From positions 67,633 to 131,632 of the forward strand of contig JAUHZB010000002.1 of NCBI GenBank assembly GCA_030426125.1: a stretch of 64,000 nucleotides of DNA, given 5' to 3'. The notes beneath the pieces were generated by a model. That model made no database searches. It saw only the letters and a list, made by a program, of their open reading frames with translations, and was not told where the DNA came from. Below, one piece after another: positions 2,671-29,587 of this stretch. The stretch is from a bacterium. GTDB taxonomy: Bacteria > Patescibacteriota > Saccharimonadia > Saccharimonadales > AWTP1-31. The translations under genes and the position numbers were made by a program. How positions within the stretch are numbered: position 1 is the stretch's first letter; every line of letters starts with the position of its first letter.

Positions 2671-4194
2671 TTACAAGAATAATTCTATACTCTCTGAATC
2701 GACTTTGTGGTACTCATAATTAGTAGCTTTTAAAGATTCTTTTAATTCTGACCAGTCATTTCCCCTAAAGCCAATTAGTACCCGGCCTTTATCGGCACCT
2801 AGTCCGCGGTAATGGAACAAGCTGATGCTCCATTTCTGACTAATGGTGTCTAGGAACTTTAGCAACGCCCCTGGTTTCTCTGGAAAATTGACTTCCAGTA
2901 TCATCTCTTGATTTTTATCTTTACTTGGGCCACCAACCATATGTCTGATATGCTCTTTGGCAATTTCATCCAGGGTTAGATCATAGTAATTGTATCGATG
3001 CTTTGTTAGGTTAGCGATTAATTGGTTCTTGTCTTCTGCTTGATTTAAGTTAATCCCGATTAGTATAACTGCTTTGTCCTTGGTTGACTGGCTGGCTTTA
3101 TAGCGGTAGCTAAATTCACTAATTGAAAAACCATTAATTACGTCAAGACAAAGTTTTCTCAGGCTCCCGGCTTTTTCTGGTAGCTCAATAGCAAACAAAG
3201 CTTCTTTGCCGCTACCTATAAGTGTTCGCTCGGCTATGAACTGGAGCCTTTCAAAAGTCATGTTGGCTCCAGATAAAATACAGGCCACTTGCTTATTCTT
3301 CTCGGATTTAAGTTCAGAAAAGTATTTTGTGGCCCCAGCTACTGACAGAGCTCCAGCCGGCTCCACAATTGCTCGACTGTCTTCAAAGATTGCTTTAATG
3401 GCGGCACAGACTTGATCTACACTGACCGTGATTATTTCATCTACATATTGTTTGGCTAGTTGGTAAGTTAAGTCCCCAACTTGCTTAACTGCTACACCGT
3501 CAGCAAAAATACCGACATGGTCTAGCTGTAGTCTTTTATTTGTCGCAAGTGACTGTTGCATGGCATTACTGTCAGCCGGCTCAACGCCTATTACTTTTAT
3601 ATCTGGTCTCTTCTTTTTAACGTATTCTGCGACTCCAGCGATTAGTCCTCCGCCACCAACGGGGACGAAAATATAGTCAAGATCTGGGTGTTGCTCTAAG
3701 AGTTCTTTGGCTACCGTGGCTTGTCCATCAATAACCATACGGTCATCAAAGGGATGAATAAAAGTCATAGGACTGGCTTTCATTAGTTCTTGGCATTTTG
3801 CGTAGGCCTCGGAATAGTTATCGCCACTTAAGACTACTTTAGCCCCGTAGCTTTTTACAGCTTCAACTTTAATACTCGGCGTTGTTTCAGGCATCACTAT
3901 TACTGCTGGAATATCTAATTCCTTGGCACTTAAGGCCACGCCCTGAGCATGGTTGCCAGCACTGGCTGCAATTACTCCGGCCTTTTTCTGCTGATCACCC
4001 AGCGAAGCTATTTTGTTGTAGGCTCCTCTAATCTTGAAAGAGTGTATAGGCTGTAAGTCTTCACGCTTGAAATTTATTGATTGGCCAAGCTGCAAGCTTA
4101 GTTTGTTGACTTTTTGTAAGGGTGTTCTACTAACTAAATCATAAAAGCTCGGGTGAACTTTTAGAGCCGATTGTTGGGTCGATTGTTTTTTCAT
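2671..4194 (-). CDS. ilvA: threonine ammonia-lyase (threonine dehydratase), biosynthetic type with two C-terminal regulatory repeats
   Basis: 507 aa. PLP-lysine motif SFKIRGAYN, glycine loop VPVGGGGLIAG, and a long C-terminal region of two ACT-like repeats as in biosynthetic IlvA. Confidence 0.9.
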   Translation of the reverse strand: MKKQSTQQSALKVHPSFYDLVSRTPLQKVNKLSLQLGQSINFKREDLQPIHSFKIRGAYNKIASLGDQQKKAGVIAASAGNHAQGVALSAKELDIPAVIVMPETTPSIKVEAVKSYGAKVVLSGDNYSEAYAKCQELMKASPMTFIHPFDDRMVIDGQATVAKELLEQHPDLDYIFVPVGGGGLIAGVAEYVKKKRPDIKVIGVEPADSNAMQQSLATNKRLQLDHVGIFADGVAVKQVGDLTYQLAKQYVDEIITVSVDQVCAAIKAIFEDSRAIVEPAGALSVAGATKYFSELKSEKNKQVACILSGANMTFERLQFIAERTLIGSGKEALFAIELPEKAGSLRKLCLDVINGFSISEFSYRYKASQSTKDKAVILIGINLNQAEDKNQLIANLTKHRYNYYDLTLDEIAKEHIRHMVGGPSKDKNQEMILEVNFPEKPGALLKFLDTISQKWSISLFHYRGLGADKGRVLIGFRGNDWSELKESLKATNYEYHKVDSESIELFL

Positions 4195-4553
4195 AGTTTC
4201 TCAGCCACTGCCTCAATTTCCACCAATAGTTTATTATCTGCAACTCTAGGAAGTTCCTTAACACCAACGGTACTACGAGCTGGTCTACTTCCACTAGCCT
4301 CAAAAACTTCGGCGTAGACTTTATTCATAGCTTCAAAATCTTCAATATTGACTAAATAGACGGTTACTTTAATTACCTTAGATAAATCTGAGCCAGCTTG
4401 TTTAAGAACATCAGTTAGGTTTTGCAGGGCAAGTGTTGTTTGCTCGGTTATATTTTCTGGTGCTTTGCCTTCCTTAGCTCCAACTTGGCCAGCACTAAAT
4501 ACTAGATTTTTGCTATCTTGGTAACTTGCGTATGGTCCGTAAGTTTTTGGCAT
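4191..4553 (-). CDS. ridA: RidA/YjgF-family reactive enamine/imine deaminase
   Basis: ORF track gives 4191..4646. Start moved to ATG 4551-4553 (MPKTYGPY...) because GAAAGGAG lies 4 nt upstream and the longer version runs through a terminator hairpin. YjgF-family C-terminus (RPARSTVGV..LP...VEIEAVA). Its TGA stop overlaps the ilvA ATG (ATGA). Confidence 0.85.
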   Translation of the reverse strand: MPKTYGPYASYQDSKNLVFSAGQVGAKEGKAPENITEQTTLALQNLTDVLKQAGSDLSKVIKVTVYLVNIEDFEAMNKVYAEVFEASGSRPARSTVGVKELPRVADNKLLVEIEAVAEKL

Positions 4554-4603: not shown

Positions 4604-4632
4604 AAAAAAGACCTCTGCTTGGTAGAGAGGTC
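4604..4632 (-). terminator. attenuator terminator in the ridA-ilvA leader
   Basis: Minus strand GACCTCT-ctaccaagc-AGAGGTC followed by TTTTTT, about 50 nt upstream of the ridA Shine-Dalgarno site. Confidence 0.7.
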
Positions 4633-4656: not shown

Positions 4657-4707
4657 CTACCGCGTAAGCGGGTCAATAATGTCAATAATTGCTACTATTT
4701 TGTTCAT
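4657..4707 (-). CDS. putative attenuator leader peptide, Ile-rich (16 aa, MNKIVAIIDIIDPLTR)
   Basis: ATG 4705-4707 to TAG 4657-4659. 5 Ile and 1 Val in 16 codons (ATT ATT GAC ATT ATT GAC). No Shine-Dalgarno site; the ATG is 8 nt after a -10 box. The stop codon lies inside the antiterminator segment. Confidence 0.6.
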   Translation of the reverse strand: MNKIVAIIDIIDPLTR

Positions 4708-5373: not shown

Positions 5374-5398
5374 AAAATTCAGGCTATTGAAGCCTGAA
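5374..5398 (-). terminator. attenuator terminator upstream of the 97-aa gene
   Basis: Minus strand TTCAGGCT-tcaat-AGCCTGAA followed by TTTT. Its left arm plus loop (TCAGGCTTCAAT) is perfectly complementary to 5429-5440. Confidence 0.65.
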
Positions 5399-5428
5399 CT
5401 ATGTGGGCTGTGTTGGCGTTAGTAACGC

Positions 5429-5542
5429 TCAGGCTTCAATATATTTTGGACACAGCCCTTTAAGATTAAGAATATCTAAAACCAGCAGCAGATTATTGCT
5501 TCCGTACGCGACGATCCGATTAGCTGTTGCTGTGTTATGCAT
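5429..5542 (-). CDS. putative attenuator leader peptide, Leu/Ile/Val-rich (37 aa)
   Basis: ATG 5540-5542 to TGA 5429-5431: MHNTATANRIVAYGSNNLLLVLDILNLKGLCPKYIEA. 7 Leu, 3 Ile, 2 Val. No Shine-Dalgarno site; the ATG is 7 nt after an extended -10. The last four codons (ATT GAA GCC TGA) form the antiterminator segment. Confidence 0.55.
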   Translation of the reverse strand: MHNTATANRIVAYGSNNLLLVLDILNLKGLCPKYIEA

Positions 5543-12868: not shown

Positions 12869-12948
12869 AGTAGGTATATTGTATAGCAAACCTGTTACAA
12901 TCTAAAGAGGTAAACTTAGTTTTTACAACTGTTAACTCAAGCAATTAC

Positions 12949-12957: not shown

Positions 12958-12973
12958 TAGGTAGTTCTTTTAT

Positions 12974-13048
12974 AGGGGTATAGTACAACGGCTAGTATAA
13001 AGGTCTCCAAAACCTTAGATCGTGGTTCGATTCCACGTACCCCTGCCA
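12974..13048 (+). tRNA. tRNA-Trp (anticodon CCA), CCA-3' encoded
   Basis: Cloverleaf read by eye: acceptor AGGGGTA/TACCCCT, anticodon arm AAGGT-CTCCAAA-ACCTT, T arm CGTGG-TTCGATT-CCACG. Confidence 0.93.
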
Positions 13049-13092
13049 ATTATTCTATGCTTATCTGAATTTGTAATCTTGCTTTATATATT

Positions 13093-13130
13093 AAATCACC
13101 AGAAGACAGTGAGGAGCTTGCTGGTGATTT
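13093..13130. terminator. hairpin between convergent tRNA-Trp and the Rpf-like gene (possible bidirectional terminator)
   Basis: AAATCACCAG...CTGGTGATTT 10-bp inverted repeat with an 18-nt loop. A/T-rich flanks on both sides. Confidence 0.45.
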
Positions 13131-13165
13131 ATCCTTTGATAGTTTAGTTTTCTTTATCTTACGAC

Positions 13166-13828
13166 TTAGCGCAGACCTAGCATGCTAGAACAGGCTGGCC
13201 ATTGTCCCCAGCCACTTCGGGCCTGAAGAATTTGAGCTCGTTTTATTTGTTCAGCTTTACTGTGTTGGTGCGGTAAACCAGTTCCACCAACTGCACGCCA
13301 GGTTGCGGCACTAAACTGCACACCACCGTAGTAACCATTGCCAGTATTTATTGACCAGTTTCCACCTGATTCACAACTAGCTAGTCGATCCCATACACTA
13401 CCACTAACCGCGTTACTACTAACAGCTGGCGCTGGGGTTGGCGTAGTTGCTGGAGCTTGATAGCTTTGCTGACTGCTACTTGAAGTCGATTGAACTCTTG
13501 TCTGTGGCTTTGGCGCTTGGTTGCTTGGAATAGCTCGTTTCTTTAGCTTTTCGGATTTGCTAGGAATCCGTAATTTATCTCCTGGGTGAATAATGTCAGG
13601 ATCAGCGATTGATTTGTTAGCGTAGAAAATTCGCTGGTAAGTTGTTTTTTTCTTGTTAGCAATTTTAGATAAGCTATCGCCTGGTTGCACTTCAACCACT
13701 ACTTTAGCTGGTTTTTTATTAGTTTTGGTTTGCTCAGCAGCTTCTACTGCTTTGGTGCTTGGTCCACCGAAAAATAGGCCGACAGCCAGAGCAAAGCTCG
13801 CTAAAAAAGCGATTTTTTTGATTGACAT
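13166..13828 (-). CDS. secreted LysM-domain protein with C-terminal Rpf-type (resuscitation-promoting-factor-like) transglycosylase domain
   Basis: 220 aa. Signal peptide MSIKKIAFLASFALAVGLFF. LysM (VQPGDSLSKIA...IHPGDKLRIP). Rpf signature WDRLASCESGGNWSINTGNGYYGGVQFSAATW. Strong Shine-Dalgarno site GGAGGAG. Confidence 0.8.
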   Translation of the reverse strand: MSIKKIAFLASFALAVGLFFGGPSTKAVEAAEQTKTNKKPAKVVVEVQPGDSLSKIANKKKTTYQRIFYANKSIADPDIIHPGDKLRIPSKSEKLKKRAIPSNQAPKPQTRVQSTSSSSQQSYQAPATTPTPAPAVSSNAVSGSVWDRLASCESGGNWSINTGNGYYGGVQFSAATWRAVGGTGLPHQHSKAEQIKRAQILQARSGWGQWPACSSMLGLR

Positions 13829-13937
13829 AAATATACTCCTCCTTTTGTCCCAAAGTGCCCTGCATGATATTAATATTGTTTATTGGCAGGTTGGGATTTG
13901 CTCCACTTTTTCCTCACAAAAAAATGGCACAAGGACT

Positions 13938-13965
13938 ATCTTACATGCTGGTATTTATATGTCAA
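13938..13965 (-). promoter_or_regulatory. candidate promoter of the Rpf-like gene
   Basis: Minus strand TTGACA (13960-13965), 16 nt, TAAGAT (13938-13943). About 100-nt leader. Confidence 0.5.
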
Positions 13966-14009
13966 ACCTAACAGATTACAAAAAATGTTGTAATTTTAAT
14001 TGGTCGTGC

Positions 14010-15566
14010 TTATAAGGTGTTTGGATATCGTCTGGCGATATATTCATTTGATTCATAAATTTGACGGGACTGAACGTGATTAATACCAAGAGCCATGGTT
14101 GTCATTGAACCGTATTCTCTGTCCGGTATTTCAACGGTCTTGGCTTTTAATGATCCAGTTATAATGGCTGGTTGCCTGGAATCATGTCTTATAGTCATAC
14201 GGTTTTGATCAAAATAGTGTACTTCTGTTTGTCGAGAAATATCTATAGTCTGTTCGGAGTTATCTGAGAATGTATAAGTGTCATTCCCCCAGGCTACGGC
14301 TGTAACTTCACCTCCGGGATTCCTGATTAGGATTGGCGACTCAACATGTTGAGACTCAATATTGAAAGGATTATCTATTTCTAGGACACCATTACTTAGA
14401 ATTTCTAGATGTAGGCCTAGTTTTTTGGCGCGGGTTAATATCTCATGTCCAGATAATTGTTCGTCTGGGAATAGCTCAGAGCTAATATATAGATCCAATT
14501 CGTTGTAGACGCCGTCTATACCGCGGTAGTTATAGTTATGGGCAACTCCACTACGCAGTAGATCAGTTCTTTGCTCAATGAACTGTATTGTTCCGGGGCA
14601 AAGATCTTCAAGGCGGGATAATAGCTCTGCTTGTTTCTGGGCTAGTGGCGAATTTGCATCAGGATCGGTTGGTTGGATTATCCCCCGATCGACTAGTGTC
14701 CACTCCAGTATCGTGGCTCGATCCTCAGAAACATTAGTTGCACCGTAGTCGTTAACGAATACTCTGTTTTCGGAGGGTAGAATGTATTTATCTTCTATAG
14801 TTTCTTCAAACCCCCTAAATCCTTGGTAGTTTATTGTATTGTATTGCTCAATAGCTAAGTCTACGTCGACGTCGGTACTACCACATAGTAGCTGAGCATC
14901 TATAGCATGGATTAATTCGTGTACTACAACGGCAGTGGTTTCGCTAAAGAATGTTGAATTATCTATTGCACTAGCCATATCAACATAGATTTTACCTTCG
15001 GCTAAATCGTACATGCCTCCAGCTATTTCTAGGCTGTCCTGATTATCATTAAATTCTGCTTTACGACTAATATTTTTTACATAGATAATTTCTGGTGCAT
15101 CCAGGGCTCTTATTAAGTTTGGTGAAAACAGCTGTAAGGCCTCCATGAGACTTTGCAGGTTAGTGGTTACTGCGCTACGCATTGCTTCATCGTCACCCGC
15201 TAGGGTTTCATATTGATAAATAGATACTTCTGACGGTTCATCGGGAAAACTTACTCTTATCCCATACTCTTGATCGATGCTGTCTATGATTTCTAGTGTA
15301 GATTGCTGGTTTAAATAACCGTCCATCGGTCTTAAGTAATTTGAAAAAATATCTTCTTGAGTTTCGGCGACTAACTGACTTACCTGAAATTCTCCAACGC
15401 TAAGGTCGGCTGTCGTACATAAATTGTCATCTTGGCCAGGCGGTTGTTCCCAGTATTCGTTTTGTTGAGTACCCAGTTCGGGGTTACTGCATCCAAGCAC
15501 CAGTGAGCCGGCGAGCAGTGGAGCCGCCAAGTATTTGATCGGATGGATACGATTGTTGGCTGACAT
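14010..15566 (-). CDS. lipoprotein with HExxH zinc-metallopeptidase motif (gluzincin, ATLF/PPEP-like; tentative)
   Basis: 518 aa. Lipobox LAGSLVLGC. VVHELIHAID plus downstream YGATNVSEDRATILE (third-ligand Glu pattern). Confidence 0.55.
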   Translation of the reverse strand: MSANNRIHPIKYLAAPLLAGSLVLGCSNPELGTQQNEYWEQPPGQDDNLCTTADLSVGEFQVSQLVAETQEDIFSNYLRPMDGYLNQQSTLEIIDSIDQEYGIRVSFPDEPSEVSIYQYETLAGDDEAMRSAVTTNLQSLMEALQLFSPNLIRALDAPEIIYVKNISRKAEFNDNQDSLEIAGGMYDLAEGKIYVDMASAIDNSTFFSETTAVVVHELIHAIDAQLLCGSTDVDVDLAIEQYNTINYQGFRGFEETIEDKYILPSENRVFVNDYGATNVSEDRATILEWTLVDRGIIQPTDPDANSPLAQKQAELLSRLEDLCPGTIQFIEQRTDLLRSGVAHNYNYRGIDGVYNELDLYISSELFPDEQLSGHEILTRAKKLGLHLEILSNGVLEIDNPFNIESQHVESPILIRNPGGEVTAVAWGNDTYTFSDNSEQTIDISRQTEVHYFDQNRMTIRHDSRQPAIITGSLKAKTVEIPDREYGSMTTMALGINHVQSRQIYESNEYIARRYPNTL

Positions 15567-15597
15567 GATAGATTTTAGTTACCAATAAATTGGTTAA

Positions 15598-15795
15598 CTA
15601 TTTCTTTACTTCGTTACGTCCTAGAGATTTCTTGGTTTCACTGTACCAAGTGTGTTTACGTAGAATAGGGTTATACTTTCTAAGCCGTAGCTTGTCTGGA
15701 GTATTCATAGTATTTTTGGACGTGTAGTAATGACGGTGTCCGGTTTCTTCGCACACTAGTCCAAGAATCTTGCGTTTATCGGTTTTCTTTGCCAT
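15598..15795 (-). CDS. rpmG: 50S ribosomal protein L33
   Basis: 65 aa. MAKKTDKRKILGLVCEETGHRHYYTSKN...LRLRKYNPILRKHTWYSE, typical L33. Confidence 0.9.
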   Translation of the reverse strand: MAKKTDKRKILGLVCEETGHRHYYTSKNTMNTPDKLRLRKYNPILRKHTWYSETKKSLGRNEVKK

Positions 15796-15803
15796 AGGAA
15801 TTT

Positions 15804-15812
15804 ATTTTAACA
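15804..15812 (-). promoter_or_regulatory. extended -10 box 8 nt upstream of the rpmG ATG (leaderless candidate)
   Basis: Minus strand TGtTAAAAT, then aaattcct, then ATG. No Shine-Dalgarno site. Confidence 0.45.
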
Positions 15813-15867
15813 GATTGACTGATAATTTACCAGTCTTAAATTATAGATAATTACAAACTGGTTTGTA

Positions 15868-15942
<75 letters not shown>

Positions 15943-15993
15943 TTAACTTGGCCTATTATACCTGTTATTTTGACTTTTTCCAAAGACCCAAGA

Positions 15994-16386
15994 CTAGTTT
16001 TTTGGCTTAAACCGAAAATCTGGAGTTGGCTCTTTAGGCATGGATGCTGTTACTGGTTCAATATATACGGCACTAATCAGGACTACTATAGGTACCTCTT
16101 CTTCTTCCTCTTCTTCTTTTTCCCATTTGGGATGAAATAGTAGGCTATAGGGCGGTTTTTCTAGTTCGTTTGTATTGACTAATGTTCCTCCATTAACTCT
16201 AGGATGATCGGGAGTTAGAATCTGTTGCTCAGGATAGCCTCCCAGGAAGCTAGCATACGAACAAACAGCCAATCGTGCTGCCGTGGCTTCTGGAGCTCGA
16301 ACATCCCAAACTGATGAGGATTGAGTAGGCTGGTCTGAAACTTCAACACGCCAAAATCTATCAGGGGTTCGATCGCTCTCGGGCAT
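15994..16386 (-). CDS. hypothetical protein (130 aa) with poly-Glu tract
   Basis: ORF track gives 15994..16398. ATG 16384-16386 (MPESDR...) is preceded by GGAGGA at only 3 nt, so the start is uncertain. TGcTAATAT promoter upstream. No family recognised. Confidence 0.4.
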   Translation of the reverse strand: MPESDRTPDRFWRVEVSDQPTQSSSVWDVRAPEATAARLAVCSYASFLGGYPEQQILTPDHPRVNGGTLVNTNELEKPPYSLLFHPKWEKEEEEEEEVPIVVLISAVYIEPVTASMPKEPTPDFRFKPKN

Positions 16387-16495
16387 AGTCCTCCACAAAC
16401 TTATTACTTATCTTTAATAGAATATTAGCATAAGAGATATTTTCTGTATACGAATTTTGGTATGTAAAATTAGCAATGACTTATATAGATAAAGC

Positions 16496-16945
16496 TCACT
16501 TGGCTACTTCGATAGTAGGAGGATCTAAGTTGAACTCTGGGCCTGTAACTATGTCTGAACTTTTCTTGAAATCACCTAGTATCACGCACAGCGCTGTTTC
16601 AGCCTGGACTTCTTTGTACATGTAGTAAGAGCTGTAGTCATCACTCATAATGAATTTATTATCTTTTTGATAGACAAACAGCTCAGGCGGTTTGAGATTT
16701 AAATAGCCTTTTAGGAAATCTGCTCTAAATTTACTGCTAATTTCTGGTTTAAAATCTGAAAAAGGCTGGATTAAATCCAACTTCACAACTGCTCTTCGGC
16801 ATTTAATCTTTGCTTGGTAGGCGTCTTTTAGGATAGACATCAATTCTTCGTCTTTTGGTGGGTGTTGCCCGCCGAATTGAATATTGATGTCATCAATATT
16901 TATACTAGACCTTTTGTCGTTCGGATCTGTTGTATCGCTGGTCAT
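16496..16945 (-). CDS. hypothetical protein (149 aa)
   Basis: ORF track gives 16496..16951 (GTG). ATG 16943-16945 lies 7 nt after TAGACT (16953-16958), fitting the leaderless pattern. Weak resemblance of ..KFIMSDDYSSYYMYKEV.. to the ParB/Srx fold; not a call. Confidence 0.45.
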   Translation of the reverse strand: MTSDTTDPNDKRSSINIDDINIQFGGQHPPKDEELMSILKDAYQAKIKCRRAVVKLDLIQPFSDFKPEISSKFRADFLKGYLNLKPPELFVYQKDNKFIMSDDYSSYYMYKEVQAETALCVILGDFKKSSDIVTGPEFNLDPPTIEVAK

Positions 16946-16981
16946 TGTCACTAGTCTACACGAAATAAATGATCTTTATGC

Positions 16982-17005
16982 AAAAAACCCTCACTGTAGG
17001 GTTTT
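16982..17005 (-). terminator. rho-independent terminator after the tRNA-Thr/tRNA-Tyr pair
   Basis: Minus strand AAAACCCT-acagtg-AGGGTTTT running into a U tract. Confidence 0.65.
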
Positions 17006-17019
17006 GTATGTTCGTAGTA

Positions 17020-17105
17020 TGGTGCAGGGTGTAGGATTCGAACCTACGAAGGCATATGCCAACAGATTTACAGTCTGTCGTGTTTGACCGCTTCACTAAC
17101 CCTGC
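17020..17105 (-). tRNA. tRNA-Tyr (anticodon GTA), long variable arm, CCA-3' encoded
   Basis: Reverse complement GCAGGGTTAGTGAAGCGGTCAAACACGACAGACTGTAAATCTGTTGGCATATGCCTTCGTAGGTTCGAATCCTACACCCTGCACCA. Confidence 0.93.
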
Positions 17106-17106
17106 A

Positions 17107-17183
17107 TGGAGCCGCCTATCGGATTCGAACCGATGACCTACGGTTTACAAAACCGTCGCTCTAACCAGCTGAGCTAAGGCGGC
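17107..17183 (-). tRNA. tRNA-Thr (anticodon TGT), CCA-3' encoded
   Basis: Reverse complement GCCGCCTTAGCTCAGCTGGTTAGAGCGACGGTTTTGTAAACCGTAGGTCATCGGTTCGAATCCGATAGGCGGCTCCA. 1-nt spacer to tRNA-Tyr. Confidence 0.95.
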
Positions 17184-17219
17184 AGGAATTAACACTAGAT
17201 AAGTGTAGCATTACAGGGG

Positions 17220-17873
17220 TTAAATTACAACGCGTTTCGGACGAGCTACTTTTTTTGGTTTGCCTGAAGGTACGATTAATTTTTTTAGTTTTTGTTCTAT
17301 TTCATCCGCCTCTATTTGCATATCGCTCTGGGTGTAGGCTTTATGTAGGAGCTCATAGGTTTCTTTATTCGGTTCAAGCTCGGCTGCTTTTTTTAGTTCG
17401 GATATCATTAACTTACTGTTACCAAGTTGTTCTTGGACTTTAGCGTAGGCAATGTGTCGAGCGGCTAGCTTATCTTCTAGCTTCAAGGCTTGTTCGAAGG
17501 CAATAGCAGCTTTTTCATAATTTTCGGTCTCGTAGTAGATTAGTCCTAGGTTGTGAAGGCTCGATGGGGTTGACTCGATACTGGAGGCAATCTCAAAGCA
17601 GTCAATAGCATCTTTAAATTCTTTTTGTTTGGCGTAAAGAATTCCTAGTCGGTTGTAGGCGGCAGCGTTTCTAGTATCTATTTTTAGAATAGTTAGCAAG
17701 GCTTTCTCGGCGCGCAAGAATCGGTTTTCACGCATTCCTTGATGGGCAACATCCCACAACTTTCCTACTTTGTCGGTGATTTTTCGTGGCAAGGCACCGA
17801 ATTCATCATCGTCACCTTTAGTGGTTCGGATAACTAGAAAGCCGAAGAATACTAGAATTAATAGTTCTAACAT
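17220..17873 (-). CDS. membrane-anchored TPR-repeat protein
   Basis: 217 aa. N-terminal TM helix MLELLILVFFGFLVI, then about 4 TPR-like repeats (AAAYNRLGILYAKQKEFKDAIDCFEIA...). Confidence 0.7.
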   Translation of the reverse strand: MLELLILVFFGFLVIRTTKGDDDEFGALPRKITDKVGKLWDVAHQGMRENRFLRAEKALLTILKIDTRNAAAYNRLGILYAKQKEFKDAIDCFEIASSIESTPSSLHNLGLIYYETENYEKAAIAFEQALKLEDKLAARHIAYAKVQEQLGNSKLMISELKKAAELEPNKETYELLHKAYTQSDMQIEADEIEQKLKKLIVPSGKPKKVARPKRVVI

Positions 17874-19659: not shown

Positions 19660-20685
19660 TTACTGTCTGAGCCCTACGGCTTTTTGGGCTTTGGCTAGTG
19701 TTTGGTTAGCTAACTGATTCACCTCTTTTTCAGATTGGCTAATTTTATCCAGGCATAGTTGGTCGTCAACAGCTTGAAGCTTATTGTTAAAATCTTTTAG
19801 GAAGTTCACTACAGCGTCGGCAACATCCTTTTTGAATTCGCCGTATTGGCTTAAGCCTTGGTATTTTTGCTGGACGTCGGCAAGTGGTGTTCCGCTCAGT
19901 GCTGACAATATATCCATTAAGTTACTAATACCAGGGCGAGTTTCATGATCATAGGCTATTTCACCGAAGCTATCGGTAGTAGCGGATAGTATCTTTTTGC
20001 GGGCCACTTCTGGATCATCACCGAGGAAAATTATGCCTTTGTCACTACCTGCTGATTTACTCATCTTTTTACTGGGATCTTGTAAATCCTTGATGCGTAA
20101 ACGGTTGGTAGAGTGAGCGAACTCAATCTGCTGTTTTTCAGCCTCCGGTAATACAAATATGTCACCAAATTTGTTATTGAAGCGAATAGCTATGTCCCTA
20201 GCTAGCTCAACGTGCTGAGTCTGATCGGCTCCGACCGGCACATATTTGGCACCGTACAGTAGAATGTCAGCAGCCATTAGTACTGGATAGTCGAATAGCC
20301 CGACAGAAACGCTCGATTGTCCACTGCCCTTTTCCTTGAATTGGGTCATTCTACTAAGTTCCCCCATGTAGGTGAAGCTGTTTAATATGACCGTTAGTTC
20401 ACTATGTGCCGGAACAAAACTTTGACGATAGATATAGGTATCCTGATCCTTAATGTCTAGCCCTGCTGCTATAAACAGCCTAATATTGTTTAAAGACTGT
20501 TCATAGAGCTTACTGTGGTCAATAGGTGTGGTGAAACTATGTAGATCAGGTACAAACAGGTTAATCTGATACTGACCAGCGTATTGCTTCTGTAATTTAA
20601 CAATAGGGAGCAAGGCACCTAGGTAATTACCAAGGTGGAGTTGGTTATTGGCCCGTAGACCGGTTAATATTACTGGTTTACTCAT
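19660..20685 (-). CDS. trpS: tryptophan--tRNA ligase
   Basis: 341 aa. Class I motifs LHLGNYLG (HIGH variant) and KMSKS. TrpRS-length single domain. Confidence 0.9.
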   Translation of the reverse strand: MSKPVILTGLRANNQLHLGNYLGALLPIVKLQKQYAGQYQINLFVPDLHSFTTPIDHSKLYEQSLNNIRLFIAAGLDIKDQDTYIYRQSFVPAHSELTVILNSFTYMGELSRMTQFKEKGSGQSSVSVGLFDYPVLMAADILLYGAKYVPVGADQTQHVELARDIAIRFNNKFGDIFVLPEAEKQQIEFAHSTNRLRIKDLQDPSKKMSKSAGSDKGIIFLGDDPEVARKKILSATTDSFGEIAYDHETRPGISNLMDILSALSGTPLADVQQKYQGLSQYGEFKKDVADAVVNFLKDFNNKLQAVDDQLCLDKISQSEKEVNQLANQTLAKAQKAVGLRQ

Positions 20686-20770
20686 AGTTCTCTCTCTATC
20701 TATTAGTTACTGAGCTATCCTGCATTACGTTATCTATTATACATAGACAACTTCTCTATTAATATGTTGT

Positions 20771-21955
20771 TTATTGCAACACTTCATCAACAGATGATAG
20801 CACTGTAGAAAGTTGTCTAGGGTTAAGCTGAGGATCAATATTCCCAGGGTGAGTTGGGGTCTGATCTGGACTGTCCACGCACTCAAGGCGGCTATTGTCT
20901 GCCATAGCCTCAACATGTATTCCATTAAGCATCCGTCCGCTAAAGTTCATTTCCTCTGCTACTGTTTCAACTTCTTCAACGAAACCGGATACACTACGGA
21001 TCTTTTGACCAGCTTGGTTAGTAGTGGTGTTGCCATGCTGATCAACAACTACGATCGATTCAGGACAGTACTTATTTATAGCATCGATGGTGTTTCGCAG
21101 TTCATCGATGTACTGTTTGCCGAAACGAAGCATTAATACTAGTTTACCTAGTTCTTGTTCAGGATTTAATACTTCGGTTAACCGTTCAACCTGTTCGGCT
21201 GTGGTGTTTGGTCCCAGCTTGACGCCAACTGGATTTTCGATACCCGACAGCATTGAAGCAATTGGTCCGTCCGCTGAGTTGGTGCGGTAGCCAATCCACG
21301 GCATGTCAGTTGATAGTAGAAACTTTTTGCCAGCATGTCTAGCTATGAAAGGTTGTTCGTAGGCAATATTCAAGGCTTCGTGAGCGAAGAATATCATTTG
21401 TTGCCCATTAGCTTGACGCAAAGCCTCAGCAGTTGCCCGAGACTGTAAAGCTCCGGCTAATAGTCTGTTGGGATCAGGTTGTCTGTCTGTTGGGTCAGTG
21501 CCATTAACACCCTGTCCCATATGTGAGACGATTTTTCTTCCATCGTCTAGTTCTTCAAATTCGTTAGATCTTGGTTTGGTGAACTGACCACAACTTCGTA
21601 GTACATGAACTCCGTCTGGAATGGCGTCTACCATACGATCTAGAAGTAGTTGGTTCTCAGCTGTCTTCTTATCGTAGTCTGCTGGGTCAACCAGCGGCTC
21701 CGAGCAGTTGCCCGCTATTATTAGTGGCCCCGACTCACCAGAGGCTACCATTGCTAAATTACTGCGCAGTTTAGTGATGTTGGTTGGTCTGGTTACTGGT
21801 TGCGCAGTCCGAAGTTCATCCAGTACTTTGAGCAGCTGCTCGCTGTCAGTGTAGTCTGGCTGGAAAGTTTCGTGGTATGGGCCAGCAGGCAGGCCGTGCA
21901 TTATTGATCTTGTTGTGTGAGCTCTAGGTCCTATCTCTGGTGTTGTGGTATTCAT
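20771..21955 (-). CDS. 3-deoxy-7-phosphoheptulonate (DAHP) synthase, class II-like, short form
   Basis: 394 aa. Class II landmarks in order: AGNCSEP (Cys ligand), GQFTKPRS, FFAHEALNIAYE, WIGYRT, NPVGVKLGP, DQHGNT (His), IHVEA (Glu), ECV, IDPQLN (Asp). Confidence 0.7.
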   Translation of the reverse strand: MNTTTPEIGPRAHTTRSIMHGLPAGPYHETFQPDYTDSEQLLKVLDELRTAQPVTRPTNITKLRSNLAMVASGESGPLIIAGNCSEPLVDPADYDKKTAENQLLLDRMVDAIPDGVHVLRSCGQFTKPRSNEFEELDDGRKIVSHMGQGVNGTDPTDRQPDPNRLLAGALQSRATAEALRQANGQQMIFFAHEALNIAYEQPFIARHAGKKFLLSTDMPWIGYRTNSADGPIASMLSGIENPVGVKLGPNTTAEQVERLTEVLNPEQELGKLVLMLRFGKQYIDELRNTIDAINKYCPESIVVVDQHGNTTTNQAGQKIRSVSGFVEEVETVAEEMNFSGRMLNGIHVEAMADNSRLECVDSPDQTPTHPGNIDPQLNPRQLSTVLSSVDEVLQ

Positions 21956-21994
21956 ATCTTTTCCTGTTATTGTCTCTTCTTATTCTTTTACATT

Positions 21995-22023
21995 AAAAAA
22001 CCGCCCCTTTTTTTTGGACGGTT
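21995..22023 (-). terminator. attenuator terminator in the DAHP-synthase leader
   Basis: Minus strand AACCGTCC-aaaaaaaag-GGGCGGTT followed by TTTT. One stem position is a G-U pair that exists only in the minus-strand RNA. Confidence 0.65.
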
Positions 22024-22045
22024 ACGTTTTCTGAGCAAAAATTAA

Positions 22046-22114
22046 CTATGCTGAATAAACCGTCCAAGATTGTCCGGTAAACCAATAAGCCTTATTAATT
22101 CGTTTTCTCAACAT
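22046..22114 (-). CDS. putative attenuator leader peptide with Tyr-Trp-Phe triplet (22 aa, MLRKRINKAYWFTGQSWTVYSA)
   Basis: ATG 22112-22114 to TAG 22046-22048. 5 of 22 codons are aromatic; codons 10-12 are TAT TGG TTT. No Shine-Dalgarno site. Codons 17-19 form the antiterminator arm. Confidence 0.65.
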   Translation of the reverse strand: MLRKRINKAYWFTGQSWTVYSA

Positions 22115-22124
22115 AACGTTATAG

Positions 22125-22153
22125 ATAATACATTATGTTGCCAAGTATTGCAA
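22125..22153 (-). promoter_or_regulatory. promoter of the aromatic leader peptide and DAHP synthase
   Basis: Minus strand TTGCAA (22148-22153), 17 nt, TATTAT (22125-22130), then 10 nt to the leader ATG. Confidence 0.6.
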
Positions 22154-22172
22154 ATGTCTTGTTAGCTTCTCT

Positions 22173-22201
22173 TTGGCCTGTGTGTTAGCTCAAGGTATAC
22201 T
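22173..22201 (+). promoter_or_regulatory. promoter of the 107-aa plus-strand gene (leaderless candidate)
   Basis: TTGGCC (22173-22178), 17 nt, TATACT (22196-22201), then 7 nt to ATG 22209. No Shine-Dalgarno site. Divergent from the DAHP-synthase promoter. Confidence 0.5.
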
Positions 22202-22208
22202 TATATAG

Positions 22209-22532
22209 ATGAAACAGACTGTAGCTTTGGAAATACTATCACCTCAGCAGCTTATTCATGATTTGCCGGGCGGTATTCGTTCTGACCAGCAAATTCAGCA
22301 AATTGATGTCTGTGGAGCCAATTGTCCAGATAGACAGCCAGTCGTAAATGACTTATTAAGGTTATCTCAGGAGCTTGGCTTTGAAGTTCGAATCATATCT
22401 AGTGGTTGTCACGGAGCGATCGGCGGATGTGCAGTAAACGGGGCGCTGGAATGCGGTGCTTATGTGACCATACCAGTTTCGTCAGCAACTGGCGTAGTAG
22501 ATTCTGAAGTAATTGTTCGCTCTCGGTCTTAG
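22209..22532 (+). CDS. hypothetical Cys/Gly-rich small protein (107 aa)
   Basis: Only plus-strand gene within a roughly 38-kb minus-strand run (tRNA-Trp at 13.0 kb to clpP at 51.5 kb). It has its own promoter and a terminator hairpin. 5 Cys (CGANC, GCHGAIGGC, EC). No family recognised. Confidence 0.5.
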   Translation: MKQTVALEILSPQQLIHDLPGGIRSDQQIQQIDVCGANCPDRQPVVNDLLRLSQELGFEVRIISSGCHGAIGGCAVNGALECGAYVTIPVSSATGVVDSEVIVRSRS

Positions 22533-22542
22533 CTTTAGTAAG

Positions 22543-22570
22543 AAAAAACACCGGCTGTGGACCGGTGTTT
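22543..22570. terminator. bidirectional terminator between the 107-aa gene (+) and rpsI (-)
   Basis: ACACCGG-ctgtgga-CCGGTGT. The A6 run upstream gives a U6 tail on the minus strand; the plus-strand tail is TTTAT. Confidence 0.75.
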
Positions 22571-22595
22571 ATCTGTTCTGTGAATCCGTTCTGGA

Positions 22596-23006
22596 TTAAC
22601 GCTTTGTAAACTGACGTTGTTTACGAGCTCCCTTAAGACCGTATTTCTTACGTTCTTTTTCTCTTGGGTCACGTCCAAGTAGATCGGCTCTTCGAAGAGT
22701 TTGCTTATAATCTTCATTTACAAGAACAAGGGCTTTAGCAATAGCAAGACGTATAGCAATCGCTTGACCACTCATTCCGCCACCAGATACTACAACGCTA
22801 ACGTCGAACTTGTTGTTTTGTTCAAGCACGTTAAAAGGTTTTGTTAGTTCGTATAGAAGAGGTTTGCTGTTAGCAAAGTATTCTTCTGCCGGCTTAGAAT
22901 TAACAGTTATGTTTCCTTTACCAGTCATAAGTCTGGCTCGAGCAGTTACGCTTTTACGTCGACCTAGTGCATAGAAGTAGTTTTTTGGTTTTGCAGTAGT
23001 TGCCAT
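22596..23006 (-). CDS. rpsI: 30S ribosomal protein S9
   Basis: 136 aa. YFYALGRRKSVTARARL and C-terminal GLKGARKQRQFTKR. UAAUG-coupled to rplM. Confidence 0.95.
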   Translation of the reverse strand: MATTAKPKNYFYALGRRKSVTARARLMTGKGNITVNSKPAEEYFANSKPLLYELTKPFNVLEQNNKFDVSVVVSGGGMSGQAIAIRLAIAKALVLVNEDYKQTLRRADLLGRDPREKERKKYGLKGARKQRQFTKR

Positions 23007-28550: not shown

Positions 28551-29015
28551 TTATTTTTTATCTGTTTTTTTCGGCTGACCGATTCTAGGTACAATTTCTA
28601 GACTTCCACCAGCTTTTTTTACAGCTTCAATAGCGCTTGCTGATGCACCTTGCAAACTTACAGTATGTTTTTTCTTAACTTCGCCATTACTAATTAGTTT
28701 TACGCTAACGTAAGGGCTACTAATTAATCCAGCTTGGTGTAATGTATGGTTATCTACCTTGATAGCTAGTTGATCAAGATCACCAGTTTTGACGGTTTCT
28801 GGTTTAGTTCTATGTGATTTAAAGCCCCGTAGTTTTGGGAAGCGCTGCATTAGTGGGTTTTGACCACCTTCAAAACCTGGTCGTAAGCTGAAACCAGTTC
28901 GAGCTTTTTGACCCTTGGTACCACGACCAGCAGTTTTACCTTGACCGGCTGAAATACCACGACCAACTCGGTTCTTGGATTTCTTAGATGTGATGTTTAA
29001 TTTGTTGTAACTCAT
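28551..29015 (-). CDS. rplO: 50S ribosomal protein L15
   Basis: 154 aa. GRGISAGQGKTAGRGTKGQKAR. Its start overlaps the rpsE stop (UAAUG), leaving no space for rpmD. Confidence 0.95.
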   Translation of the reverse strand: MSYNKLNITSKKSKNRVGRGISAGQGKTAGRGTKGQKARTGFSLRPGFEGGQNPLMQRFPKLRGFKSHRTKPETVKTGDLDQLAIKVDNHTLHQAGLISSPYVSVKLISNGEVKKKHTVSLQGASASAIEAVKKAGGSLEIVPRIGQPKKTDKK

Positions 29016-29587
29016 TATTTAGCCTCTTTTTTGGCTTTAGACTTTGTTGATTTAGCAGTAGCTGTTTCTGACTTCTTAGTTACCGGCTTGCTTGTCACCC
29101 AGTCTTTGGCTGGCACCATGCTGCTAAGTCCTTCGATGACTGCGTAAGCAGTGTTAGTCTTGTTGCTAGAACCTAGTGATTTACTAAGAGCGTTATGCAC
29201 ACCAGCAACTTCAAGGATTGTTCGGACTACACCACCAGCGATTAGACCAGTACCAGGGCTAGCTGGCTTAAGTAGAATGTTAGCACCCCCAACTTTGGTT
29301 AATGAATCGTGTGGCAGAGTGCCTTTGTATAGAGTTACGTTGATCATGTTTTTCTTAGCAACATCAACAGCCTTGGATACAGCGGTAGATACGTCAGCTC
29401 CTTTAGCTGAGCCAACACCTACACGGTTCTTTTTGTCGCCAACGACTACTAGTGCTCGGAATCTAAATCTTCGACCACCTTTAACTACTCGAGCAACACG
29501 ATCGATAGTTAGAACTCGTTCGTCGAATTGTTTTTCTTCTTGATCAATTTTACGGTTCATAGCTTTAGTATTTTGTGAATCTACCAT
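29015..29587 (-). CDS. rpsE: 30S ribosomal protein S5 (basic C-terminal tail)
   Basis: 190 aa. RVARVVKGGRRFRFRALVVVGD. Confidence 0.95.
   Translation of the reverse strand: MVDSQNTKAMNRKIDQEEKQFDERVLTIDRVARVVKGGRRFRFRALVVVGDKKNRVGVGSAKGADVSTAVSKAVDVAKKNMINVTLYKGTLPHDSLTKVGGANILLKPASPGTGLIAGGVVRTILEVAGVHNALSKSLGSSNKTNTAYAVIEGLSSMVPAKDWVTSKPVTKKSETATAKSTKSKAKKEAK

Follow-up and report, generated by a model that had tools for sequence, protein, structure and literature searches.

A short-form class II DAHP synthase gene and an ilvA gene behind leader-peptide attenuators in a Saccharibacteria genome segment

In the 64-kb stretch of DNA analysed here (the window), a gene for a short-form class II DAHP (DAH7P) synthase lies behind an attenuator of the leader-peptide type, comprising a leader ORF, an intrinsic terminator and a mutually exclusive, covarying antiterminator. 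A second pathway-entry gene, ilvA, is preceded by leaders rich in isoleucine and leucine codons. We propose that the two enzymes take part in ordinary, attenuator-regulated biosynthesis, the other pathway genes being located elsewhere in the genome, and consider this reading probable. Both the enzymes and the switches belong to known kinds; the most reportable result is the aromatic leader motif, for which there is no Rfam family.

Among the checked ORFs of at least 100 amino acids, the gene content of the window is housekeeping only, as judged by Pfam/NCBIfam annotation or by synteny to annotated relatives: ribosomal proteins, rpoBC, EF-Tu/G, SecY/E, NusG, tmk-thyX, dcd, aaRS genes and recG. 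A few of these ORFs had no Pfam or NCBIfam match. Besides the DAHP synthase gene and ilvA, the 64 kb contained no further aro, trp, phe, tyr, ilv or leu gene among the checked ORFs, in agreement with a preliminary description of this DNA. The CPR hallmarks pointed out in the same description are borne out by the NCBI names on homologues, which place the window in the Saccharibacteria, and by the gene for S5 (29015–29587), which directly abuts that for L15 (28551–29015), the L30 gene being missing between them. An AAA_33 kinase (12206–12889) was considered as a shikimate kinase and rejected; its SKI match was weak and below the cut-off, PSTK/KTI12-type kinases matched better, and its synteny is kept in one relative (L096). 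An Rfam scan of the whole window at the gathering score returned five tRNAs and nothing else.

Table 1. Features of the two attenuator loci in the window
Feature	Position	Strand	Basis
Sigma-70-like promoter candidate (TTGCAA, 17 nt, TATTAT) for leader-DAHPS-trpS	22125..22153	-	Consensus scan only; function putative
Aromatic leader peptide ORF, MLRKRINKAYWFTGQSWTVYSA + stop, 22 codons	22046..22114	-	Read from sequence
Antiterminator 5' strand GGACGGUU (leader codons 17–19), complementary to terminator 5' arm	22058..22065	-	RNAduplex, covariation
Intrinsic terminator: AACCGUCC, 9-nt loop, GGGCGGUU, U-run	21995..22023	-	MFE and centroid fold
Short-form class II DAHP synthase, 394 aa	20771..21955	-	PF01474, 6bmc match, catalytic residues, AlphaFold model
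trpS (tryptophan-tRNA ligase)	19660..20685	-	TIGR00233, 302 bits (cut-off 177)
Additional Leu-rich leader system	5374..5542	-	Leader 5542–5429, antiterminator strand 5439–5429, terminator 5398–5374
Ile-rich leader peptide ORF, MNKIVAIIDIIDPLTR + stop	4657..4707	-	Read from sequence
Intrinsic terminator of Ile attenuator: GACCUCU, loop, AGAGGUC, U6	4604..4632	-	Fold z-score
ridA (enamine/imine deaminase)	4191..4553	-	PF01042, 113 bits; TIGR00004, 101 bits
ilvA (biosynthetic threonine ammonia-lyase)	2671..4194	-	TIGR01124, NF006674, PALP and two Thr_dehydrat_C

The DAHP synthase and its relatives

The DAHP synthase scored 219 bits against PF01474 (gathering cut-off 27). It retains the four metal-ligand landmarks noted in the preliminary description, namely NCSE (residues 83–86; Cys84), QHGNT (306–310; His307), HVEA (347–350; Glu349) and DPQLN (374–378; Asp374), as well as the substrate-binding motif KPRS (127–130), all of which align with their counterparts in 6bmc and 5uxm. 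Across 31 members of the clade the four ligand residues are never substituted, and Lys127-Pro-Arg129, Glu193, Arg224, Lys246 and Arg277 are likewise invariant. To judge from these residues, the enzyme is apparently catalytically competent and is predicted to condense PEP with erythrose-4-phosphate.

Its closest sequence in the PDB is 6bmc, a short type IIB enzyme, to which it aligns in a single continuous stretch (1e-38, approximately 31% identity). Alignment to full-length enzymes is interrupted by approximately 57 missing residues, at the alpha2a/alpha2b insert. The spacing between the KPRS and HEAL motifs is 60 residues in the window enzyme, 54–60 in 30 of the 31 clade members (71 in the remaining one, P0039) and 107–117 in full-length class II enzymes. 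An AlphaFold model (pLDDT 94.9, pTM 0.93) has the (beta/alpha)8 barrel fold and the N-terminal extension of class II enzymes. The best structural match is again 6bmc (TM 0.81/0.83), and the top 39 PDB matches found by Foldseek are all class II DAH7PS (TMq 0.73–0.85). Against NCBIfam TIGR01358, which describes the canonical type IIA form, the protein scored 188 bits, far under the equivalog cut-off of 614.7.

In full-length class II DAH7PS, helices alpha2a and alpha2b build the allosteric sites for Trp, Phe and Tyr. Since the window enzyme lacks these elements, it is probably insensitive to the three amino acids, and we place its control at the level of transcription. The omission of alpha2a/alpha2b is shared with the type IIB enzymes. 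The secondary-metabolite cluster that also characterizes that type is absent; the surroundings are a ribosomal-protein operon and trpS or, in relatives, tyrA, pheA, chorismate mutase and aminotransferase genes. Neither the missing insert nor the likely co-transcription with trpS is mentioned in the preliminary description.

In a neighbor-joining tree (without bootstrap and without PA1901), the short DAHP synthases form a monophyletic, Saccharibacteria-only clade, distinct from every other sequence in the tree, even the short forms. A metagenome scan with a clade-specific C-terminal sub-alignment yielded eight loci; a scan with the single DAHP synthase protein as query gave no match. The gene order rpsI-DAHPS-trpS-rluD-holB is kept across relatives whose ribosomal proteins share only 60–76% identity. 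Horizontal acquisition had been suggested as something to check; given the monophyly of the clade and the conserved gene order, a recent gain of this gene by transfer is unsupported.

Downstream of DAHPS, trpS is found in nine of the 16 Saccharibacterial loci. It immediately adjoins DAHPS in the window and in six relatives (L083, L005, L088, L089, L086 and L101), and in two others (L003 and L004) different genes intervene. The spacer in the window is 85 nt long and is free of any terminator-like site; the two genes are probably co-transcribed.

Five relatives carry tyrA, pheA or prephenate dehydratase (PDT), chorismate mutase (CM) and aminotransferase genes in an operon or cluster with the orthologous DAHPS. 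These include a DAHPS-tyrA-pheA(CM-PDT-ACT)-ilvE cluster (L003), CM, PDT, PDH and aminotransferase genes near DAHPS (L084 and L100), and PDT (L085 and L094), in the last case together with PDH. A search with the CM-PDT-ACT protein of L003 yielded 1186 relatives, and several of the best 120 are named Saccharibacteria or Saccharimonadales. Homologs of aroB, aroD/Q, aroE, aroK, aroA and aroC were recognised neither in the window nor in the 10 kb around each of the 16 DAHPS loci, in several of which the family scan covered part of the ORFs. At the loci inspected, no transporter, unusual enzyme or secondary-metabolite cluster was linked to DAHPS. A P-loop-kinase/LDH-like fusion of approximately 500 amino acids accompanies DAHPS in three relatives (L084, L085 and L100), where it neighbours the PDT, CM and PDH genes.

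Attenuators of the DAHP synthase and ilvA genes

The promoter candidate is situated just upstream of the aromatic leader ORF, whose consecutive Tyr-Trp-Phe codons occupy positions 22087–22079. The terminator hairpin (-11.1 kcal/mol) is present in both the MFE and the centroid structure, and its 5' arm forms a duplex with the antiterminator strand of -12.6 kcal/mol (RNAduplex; z = -4.0 versus shuffles). By eye, an aromatic leader with a Y/F-W-F-T cluster and a terminator precede DAHPS in all 16 Saccharibacterial loci. An automatic leader/terminator rule recognized 14 of these 16, versus one of 77 non-Saccharibacterial class II DAHPS loci. For each of the 14 leaders examined, the terminator 5' arm paired best with a segment in the 3' portion of the leader ORF (z between -1.8 and -4.9), the antiterminator strand lying within the last 3–10 codons. 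The two strands covary (GGACGG/CCGTCC, GGCGG/CCGCC, AGAGGC/GCCTCT and GGAGGC/GCCTCC), with a further compensatory pair, GAGGCG/CGCCTC, found by eye in L100. Among 101 loci the strict leader/antiterminator/terminator pattern is confined to these sites, and the variant of the combined pattern that occurs in the window is unique there, with 0 expected by chance. A Trp codon is nearly universal in the leaders of the clade; the only leader without one (L094) also has no trpS downstream.

The Rfam leader families, including Trp_leader, Phe_leader and Leu_leader, had no match in the window at the gathering score, and nothing relevant was found at E values up to 10 in 20600–22700 and 4100–5700. T-boxes and the known leader families were rejected for both genes on these grounds. 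A MAFFT alignment of the 16 leaders misaligned several terminator 5' arms, and no covariance model was derived from it. When the ribosome footprint was masked in equilibrium folding, the window leader failed to switch to the antiterminator, and the switch was reproduced in some leaders only. The switch was judged by duplex and covariation analysis rather than by equilibrium folding and, since the latter alone gave no switch in the window, our proposal rests on kinetic, co-transcriptional reasoning. One Trp codon of the leader, the second (W17), shares nucleotides with the antiterminator strand, and a stall there would favour termination.

From this layout, we propose that transcription would start at the candidate promoter and proceed through the leader ORF. 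When charged aromatic tRNAs are ample, the ribosome would reach the leader stop codon and mask GGACGGUU, leaving the AACCGUCC/GGGCGGUU hairpin and its U-tract to end transcription. With poor charging, the ribosome would stall at Tyr-Trp-Phe and GGACGGUU would be free to pair with AACCGUCC; this pairing would block the terminator, and the polymerase would continue into the DAHP synthase gene and trpS. Stalling in vivo would thereby couple read-through to the supply of charged tRNA. In the literature we found nothing specific on shikimate, chorismate or DAHP synthase in Saccharibacteria/Patescibacteria, nor on leader peptides in CPR.

The IlvA protein passed both TIGR01124 (657 bits; cut-off 411) and NF006674 (681 bits; cut-off 577), and scored under the cut-offs of the catabolic TdcB-type models. 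It consists of a PALP (PLP) domain followed by two C-terminal Thr_dehydrat_C regulatory stretches, which agrees with its earlier designation as a full-length enzyme of the feedback type. The stop codon of ridA overlaps the ilvA start. The real start of ridA is probably Met32 of the listed ORF, since an ORF beginning at the listed TTG would overlap with the terminator. Two relatives likewise have a RidA gene ahead of ilvA, namely L098 (leader-ridA-ilvB-ilvN-ilvA) and L099 (ridA immediately before ilvA). Operons of the type ilvB-ilvN-ilvA are present in L097 and L098, and the contig of L098 also bears a DAHPS locus; these ilvBN neighbours are missing beside the window ilvA.

Ile-rich leaders were seen in four loci, namely the window and the orthologous operons of L096, L098 and L099. 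The leader region in the window has a fold z-score of -4.6, and L096 and L099 have an equivalent hairpin. The Ile antiterminator pairs less strongly than its aromatic counterpart (z = -2.3 in the window; values across loci -2.3, 0.2 and -3.5). The Leu-rich leader is located upstream of two small ORFs, which in turn precede the Ile leader; it is conserved in L096 and L099, with an antiterminator/terminator duplex of -20.9 kcal/mol (z = -5.6). We propose that ridA-ilvA would follow the same logic as DAHPS, through the Ile-rich leader, with the Leu-rich leader farther upstream.

As the preliminary description had stated, both genes lie behind amino-acid-specific attenuators, and the leaders and terminators recur in relatives. 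The conservation of these attenuators argues for a physiological tie of one gene to Trp/Phe/Tyr supply and of the other to Ile supply, and both genes look functional, as that description suggested. Given the attenuator logic proposed for each, DAHP synthase and IlvA would carry out, under regulation, the first committed steps towards the aromatic amino acids and isoleucine, and a subset of Saccharibacteria would have kept them.

Complete pathways or orphan entry enzymes

The remaining pathway genes most likely lie elsewhere in this genome. Comparative evidence leans towards this reading, which would make the bacterium less of an auxotroph than CPR dogma holds. We favour ordinary biosynthesis because the orthologues in relatives sit with tyrA, pheA, chorismate mutase, aminotransferases or ilvBN. 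Counting against it are published surveys according to which Saccharibacteria do not synthesize amino acids de novo (PMC7427843, PMC11659515). The absence of aroB-aroC near the loci and of ilvBN here, and the TIGR01358 score under the cut-off, also count against it. A different explanation for the want of pathway neighbours within 64 kb is that the rest of both routes was lost, and that DAHP and 2-oxobutyrate go to the host or into a non-canonical route under the control of the epibiont's own tRNA charging, which we consider unlikely. It would agree with the lack of pheA/tyrA within 10 kb in L083, L005, L088, L089 and L101, where rpsI, DAHPS and trpS are directly adjacent, with the absence here of ilvBN, which L097 and L098 carry at the equivalent position, and with the description of Saccharibacteria as auxotrophs (PMC7427843, PMC11659515). 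However, the sensing of its own aromatic tRNA charging is sensible only if more DAHP synthase raises the cell's own aromatic supply; moreover, complete post-chorismate sets adjoin the same gene in relatives, and neither a transporter nor an unusual enzyme is linked to it. To our knowledge, DAHP and 2-oxobutyrate are not exchange metabolites, which also speaks against this explanation, and nothing positive was found in favour of a host-complemented or non-canonical route. It is distinctly unlikely that these are true orphans, the epibiont running only the regulated first aromatic and Ile steps on its own uncharged tRNAs while the host or unrecognised enzymes finish the synthesis; the kinase/LDH-like fusion would be one candidate for such an enzyme.

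The attenuator might also serve mainly trpS, with the DAHPS-like gene as a passenger whose enzyme could even carry out a related reaction towards a product other than an amino acid. Elsewhere in bacteria, pheST is under leader control and trpS under T-box control, and class II enzymes of the PhzC and aminoDAHP types serve secondary metabolism. The frequency of trpS behind DAHPS, and its absence from the one locus whose leader lacks Trp, would suit such an arrangement, as would the failed TIGR01358 cut-off and a type IIB architecture so far tied to secondary metabolism (PMC6435475). We regard it as improbable, since Trp/Phe/Tyr leaders are also found where no trpS follows (L084, L085, L093 and L100), and Phe and Tyr codons always accompany the near-universal Trp codon, which fits control of the shared first step more readily than control of TrpRS by itself. 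In relatives the gene is flanked by Phe/Tyr genes of primary metabolism, with no sign of a secondary-metabolite cluster, and the enzyme has the metal- and PEP-binding residues of true DAH7PS. As for IlvA, the threonine dehydratase of Saccharimonadia (Candidatus Lutisaccharimonas) was read as catabolic in a 2026 preprint (10.64898/2026.09.16.751625). With this precedent, and with no ilvBNCDE in the window, the enzyme might convert threonine/serine carbon to 2-oxobutyrate or pyruvate for central metabolism instead of starting isoleucine synthesis. This is highly improbable in view of its passing the biosynthetic model with two regulatory domains and missing the TdcB-type cut-offs, of Ile-rich (and Leu-rich) leaders that would induce on Ile shortage, and of orthologues lying in ilvB-ilvN-ilvA operons.

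CPR bacteria, Saccharibacteria included, are routinely called incapable of amino acid synthesis. The locus and its relatives indicate otherwise for some environmental Saccharibacteria, which retain first-step and post-chorismate aromatic enzymes, IlvA with or without AHAS, and attenuators for Trp/Phe/Tyr, Ile and Leu. The conserved aromatic leader motif could help to pick out operons that respond to amino acids in CPR genomes, and the findings offer a testable prediction of which Saccharibacteria depend less on a host. Should the pathways prove incomplete, the same locus would become evidence for pathway sharing with the host, and true orphans would mean that episymbiont and host each run part of one metabolic pathway.

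Comparison with known systems

The window enzyme belongs to the same family as the type IIA DAH7PS of Mycobacterium tuberculosis and Corynebacterium glutamicum (2b7o, 5hud), with the same metal ligands and PEP-binding residues (TMq approximately 0.8). It differs in having no alpha2a/alpha2b insert, which in those enzymes comprises roughly 52 residues and forms the aromatic amino acid sites, and in scoring well below the type IIA model. With the type IIB enzyme PaeDAH7PS(PA1901)/PhzC of Pseudomonas aeruginosa (6bmc; Sterritt et al. 2018, PMC6435475) it shares the class II fold with the N-terminal extension, the omission of alpha2a/alpha2b and a similar length (394 versus 405 amino acids), and both may be controlled by expression rather than allosterically. 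In contrast to PA1901, the window enzyme, with only approximately 31% identity to it, belongs to a clade of its own, and its gene lies beside trpS and housekeeping genes (in relatives, Phe/Tyr genes) instead of a phenazine or other secondary-metabolite cluster and is under an aromatic leader-peptide attenuator. It may thus represent a third flavour of class II DAH7PS, combining type IIB-like shortness with a setting in primary metabolism and leader-peptide control.

A close regulatory parallel is known from C. glutamicum, whose DAHP synthase gene aroF is under the control of aroR, a leader with Phe-Tyr-Phe codons (PMC11802643, citing Neshat 2014). As far as the system is described there, both are cases of ribosome-mediated attenuation of a DAHPS gene, with a short leader carrying adjacent aromatic codons followed by a terminator. 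The regulatory codons of aroR are Phe-Tyr-Phe and those of the present leader Tyr-Trp-Phe(-Thr), and almost every leader of the clade includes Trp. The phylum also differs (Saccharibacteria/CPR here), as do the operon, which here usually includes trpS, and the leader itself, which here matches no Rfam family.

The classical leader-peptide attenuators of E. coli are trpL, pheL (of pheA), pheM (of pheST) and ilvL (of ilvGMEDA). Those described here have no likeness to them in sequence or by covariance model (Rfam, E up to 10). A single leader here reads all three aromatic amino acids, and the branched-chain signals, which ilvL combines in one multivalent leader, are split into tandem Leu-rich and then Ile-rich leaders. 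The four-region logic of regulatory codons, a maskable antiterminator strand, and a terminator with its U-tract is nonetheless the same, as is the use of an Ile-rich leader for ilvA.

The DAHP synthase and its relatives

The most reportable result is a Tyr-Trp-Phe leader, kept in a CPR lineage, which is coupled to an allostery-less class II DAHP (DAH7P) synthase and, probably, to trpS. The synthase scores 219 bits against the Pfam class II DAHP synthase family (cut-off 27), and the four metal-ligand landmarks reported in the preliminary description (NCSE, QHGNT, HVEA and DPQLN) are all there. A check for active-site substitutions on an alignment of 31 clade members found none at the metal ligands Cys84, His307, Glu349 and Asp374; Lys127-Pro-Arg129, Glu193, Arg224, Lys246 and Arg277, which by alignment are the PEP/E4P-binding residues of solved enzymes, are invariant too. 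Judged from the alignment, this is the signature of selection for catalysis.

The protein scores below the cut-off of the NCBIfam equivalog that describes canonical class II enzymes (188 vs 614.7 bits). Its closest solved relative by sequence is 6bmc, a 405 amino acid PhzC-type enzyme from Pseudomonas aeruginosa, to which it aligns continuously; alignments to the full-length enzymes 5uxm and 2b7o fall into two pieces, flanking a segment of approximately 57 residues which it lacks. The KPRS-to-HEAL distance is 54-60 residues in 30 of the 31 clade members (71 in the clade protein P0039), 56-73 in most other short forms and 107-117 in full-length enzymes. The missing segment corresponds to helices alpha2a and alpha2b. 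These build the allosteric sites for aromatic amino acids and their omission defines type IIB, a subclass whose member PA1901 does not respond to Phe, Tyr or Trp (Sterritt et al., PMC6435475). The AlphaFold model, with the clade alignment as input, was confident (pLDDT 94.9, pTM 0.93), and its best structural match was again 6bmc (TM 0.81/0.83, rmsd 3.0).

In a collection of 5.8 billion proteins, some 78 of approximately 375-430 residues show 34-57% identity to the synthase; beyond these, identity is at most 33% and lengths are mostly 440-470 residues. The close homologs with names or readable loci are Saccharibacterial. A neighbor-joining tree, without bootstrap and without PA1901, placed the 31 clade members in one group apart from 35 other class II sequences, short forms included. 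In the window and at loci L083, L005, L088, L089, L004, L003, L086 and L101 of relatives, the gene lies between rpsI, at the end of a ribosomal protein operon, and trpS-rluD-holB. Since this synteny is kept across genomes whose ribosomal proteins are only 60-76% identical to those of the window, it argues for long vertical inheritance; recent horizontal acquisition, for which a phylogenetic check had been proposed, was not supported by the single clade and kept gene order. The orthologous gene at L004 (9977-11177) is divided by a frameshift into two overlapping ORFs, and is either a pseudogene or affected by an error of long-read assembly; a 442 amino acid ORF without family lies between it and trpS.

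Divergent from the synthase gene, between its promoter and the rpsI terminator, is a Cys-rich ORF of 107 residues (22209-22532, + strand). It has no Pfam or NCBIfam match and is missing at the corresponding position in relatives; about nine distant homologs, mostly of 90-115 residues, make it probable that this small gene is real.

Coordinates of the features discussed (window positions unless a protein or another locus is named)
Feature	Position	Strand	Details
DAHP synthase ORF	20771-21955	(-)	394 residues
DAHP synthase motifs	NCSE 83-86; QHGNT 306-310; HVEA 347-350; DPQLN 374-378; KPRS 127-130		protein positions
Promoter-like site	22153-22125	(-)	TTGCAA, 17 nt, TATTAT
Aromatic leader ORF	22114-22046	(-)	MLRKRINKAYWFTGQSWTVYSA
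Regulatory codons	22087-22079	(-)	consecutive Tyr-Trp-Phe
Antiterminator strand	22065-22058	(-)	GGACGGUU
Aromatic-leader terminator	22023-21995	(-)	AACCGUCC, loop, GGGCGGUU, U-run
ilvA	2671-4194	(-)	biosynthetic threonine ammonia-lyase; TIGR01124 657 bits, cut-off 411
Ile leader ORF	4707-4657	(-)	MNKIVAIIDIIDPLTR
Ile-leader terminator	4632-4604	(-)	fold z = -4.6
Leu-rich leader ORF	5542-5429	(-)	37 codons; ...NNLLLVLDILNLKGLCPKYIEA; Leu-rich peptide MHNTATANRIVAYGSNNLLLVLDILNLKGLCPKYIEA
Leu-leader terminator	5398-5374	(-)	whole element 5374-5542
Small ORFs, 97 and 99 aa	5062-5355 and 4740-5039	(-)	between Leu and Ile leaders
P-loop/LDH fusion	L084 17512-19035; L085 13497-15002; L100 12181-13680	(-); (+); (+)	

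The aromatic leader and trpS

That the synthase gene and ilvA are wired to amino-acid-specific attenuators, as previously claimed, was strongly confirmed, the decisive evidence being comparative. In the window, GGACGGUU shows perfect complementarity to the terminator's 5' arm, and the predicted structures, MFE as well as centroid, contain the terminator; folding of the region against shuffles gave z = -3.2. At all 16 Saccharibacterial loci compared, a GC-rich hairpin and U-run follow a short ORF that encodes a cluster of aromatic residues. The consensus is Y/F-W-F-T, with nucleotides UGGUUUACC nearly invariant; examples include MIAHIHTATYFWFTDTIRGGLFRVFA, MSIHQNTSQYWFTDTDRGGLLQV, MQSNWFYFTGISCGGIALYSN and MAAQTAWFFTNFYYANEAEFVLR. 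The best upstream partner of the terminator 5' arm lay in the last few leader codons, a segment which would be masked by a ribosome at the stop codon, in each of 14 leaders tested (z -1.8 to -4.9). This pairing covaries between lineages (GGACGG/CCGTCC, GGCGG/CCGCC, AGAGGC/GCCTCT, GGAGGC/GCCTCC and, by eye, GAGGCG/CGCCTC in L100). An automatic criterion (at least three aromatic residues per window of four, and a terminator within 110 nt) selected 14 of the 16 loci vs one, unconvincing, among 77 class II loci of other phyla. The strict sequence pattern was confined to these sites among 101 fetched loci, and the window's variant is unique within 64 kb, none being expected by chance. No Rfam family matched the leader. 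Upstream of the L094 synthase gene (2864-4045) is MNIVSNTYFTSYYYASKAGFLL, which alone among the aromatic leaders has no Trp codon; there, no trpS follows.

We infer the following switch. With ample charged tRNA, the ribosome would translate through to the stop codon (22048-22046) and occlude GGACGGUU, so that the terminator forms and transcription ends near 21995. When Tyr-, Trp- or Phe-tRNA is scarce, it would stall at 22087-22079, its footprint stopping just short of 22065; GGACGGUU could then pair with AACCGUCC upon its transcription, and polymerase would enter the synthase gene. In equilibrium folding, masking the ribosome footprints was not in itself enough to flip the leader of the window, and the argument consequently rests on co-transcriptional kinetics.

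The trpS gene starts 85 nt past the synthase stop codon, with no terminator-like site in the spacer; in five of six directly adjacent relatives the gap is 7-34 nt or an overlap, and in L086 it is 39 nt. Based upon this spacing, TrpRS is probably part of the attenuator-regulated transcript.

The ilvA operon and its leaders

The description of IlvA as a full-length, feedback-type enzyme proved correct: it exceeds the equivalog cut-off and combines a PLP domain with two regulatory stretches at its C-terminus. The Ile-leader terminator is followed by ridA and then ilvA, the ridA stop overlapping the ilvA start. Since the listed TTG start of ridA overlaps the terminator, its true start is most likely Met32 (4553). 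Ile-rich leaders precede the orthologous operons of three relatives, L096 (MVKQSAIIEIIAPPKR), L098 (...NLIIIVIIAV...) and L099 (...SLILGLIIIN...). For the Ile leader, the antiterminator does not stand out as clearly as it does for the aromatic one. The gene order thyX-...-ilvA-rplJ-rplL is common to the window, L096, L097 and L099. L097 contains ilvB-ilvN-ilvA, and L098, on one contig with synthase locus L083, leader-ridA-ilvB-ilvN-ilvA, for which reason the window's ridA-ilvA looks like a trimmed biosynthetic operon. A preprint reads the Saccharimonadia threonine dehydratase as catabolic (10.64898/2026.09.16.751625); for this IlvA we consider that very unlikely, since the equivalog match, regulatory domains, Ile leader and ilvBN neighbors favor a biosynthetic role.

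Farther upstream is a Leu-rich leader whose final 11 nt, UUGAAGCCUGA, show perfect complementarity to the terminator's 5' arm and loop (duplex -20.9 kcal/mol, z = -5.6); L096 and L099 keep this element. Two small ORFs without Pfam match separate it from the Ile leader, the 97-residue one showing 41% identity to a 91-residue ORF at the same L096 position; L099 likewise has two, one within the Ile-attenuated unit. From this order, the region may be under tandem attenuation, Leu then Ile.

The window also encodes a thymidylate kinase/ThyX fusion of 775 residues (5602-7929, - strand), found in L096, L097 and L099 as well. The IlvA most similar to that of the window (66% identity) is encoded at L096. 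Just downstream of rplL (12844-17780), this locus has genes for an IS1595 transposase and a relaxase-like protein, and also for a reverse transcriptase and its bAvd accessory protein; the latter two resemble a diversity-generating retroelement.

Pathway context and known systems

Family annotation and synteny gave ribosomal protein operons, rpoB/rpoC, EF-Tu/EF-G, SecY/SecE/NusG, fused tmk-thyX, dcd, trpS, tyrS, hisS, ClpP, trigger factor, RecG, a PBP and a few ORFs without family match. As first noted, apart from the synthase gene and ilvA, nothing of the aro, trp, phe, tyr, ilv and leu sets was seen in the 64 kb. An AAA_33/KTI12-like P-loop kinase (12206-12889, - strand; synteny kept in L096) is probably not an aro gene: similarity to shikimate kinase is sub-threshold, and PSTK-type kinases are its best match. 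The CPR hallmarks also held, since homologs carry the NCBI names Candidatus Saccharibacteria and Saccharimonadales and S5 directly adjoins L15 without an L30 gene.

Saccharibacteria have been described as making no amino acids (PMC7427843, PMC11659515). That both steps are truly orphan and host-complemented is the less likely alternative. None of the 16 loci had a recognizable aroB-aroC gene within 10 kb, the family scan having covered some of the ORFs at several of them. At L003, the leader and synthase gene are followed by genes for prephenate dehydrogenase (PDH), a CM-PDT-ACT P-protein and an IlvE-type aminotransferase, with one more ORF and a hydrolase-like gene (AstE/AspA catalytic domain) upstream of trpS. 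L084 and L100 have chorismate mutase (CM), prephenate dehydratase (PDT), PDH and class I/II aminotransferase genes within 10 kb (L084 a PEP-synthase-like gene as well); PDT and tyrS lie near the synthase gene in L085, and PDH and PDT adjoin it in L094. A search with the L003 CM-PDT-ACT protein gave 1186 relatives at E up to 1e-20, and the best 120 include several named Saccharibacteria or Saccharimonadales. Because post-chorismate genes need chorismate, the relatives carrying them very probably possess the entire shikimate pathway. We think it reasonably likely that the remaining genes lie elsewhere in the present genome, and the apparent orphan status of the pathway-entry enzymes probably stems from window size and an over-general belief about Saccharibacteria. 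In three aromatic clusters, PDT, CM and PDH genes adjoin a fusion of approximately 500 residues, with an N-terminal P-loop kinase-like region and an LDH/MDH-like dehydrogenase, conceivably a stand-in for a missing shikimate-pathway step.

The insert being absent, one leader reading all three aromatic amino acids would be a coherent substitute for feedback inhibition. The proposed switching logic is that of trpL/pheL, and PMC11802643 provides a direct precedent in aroR, the Phe-Tyr-Phe leader of a DAHP synthase gene in Corynebacterium glutamicum. The enzymes and the switches are of known kinds; here a leader is coupled with a class II DAH7PS lacking the allosteric insert.
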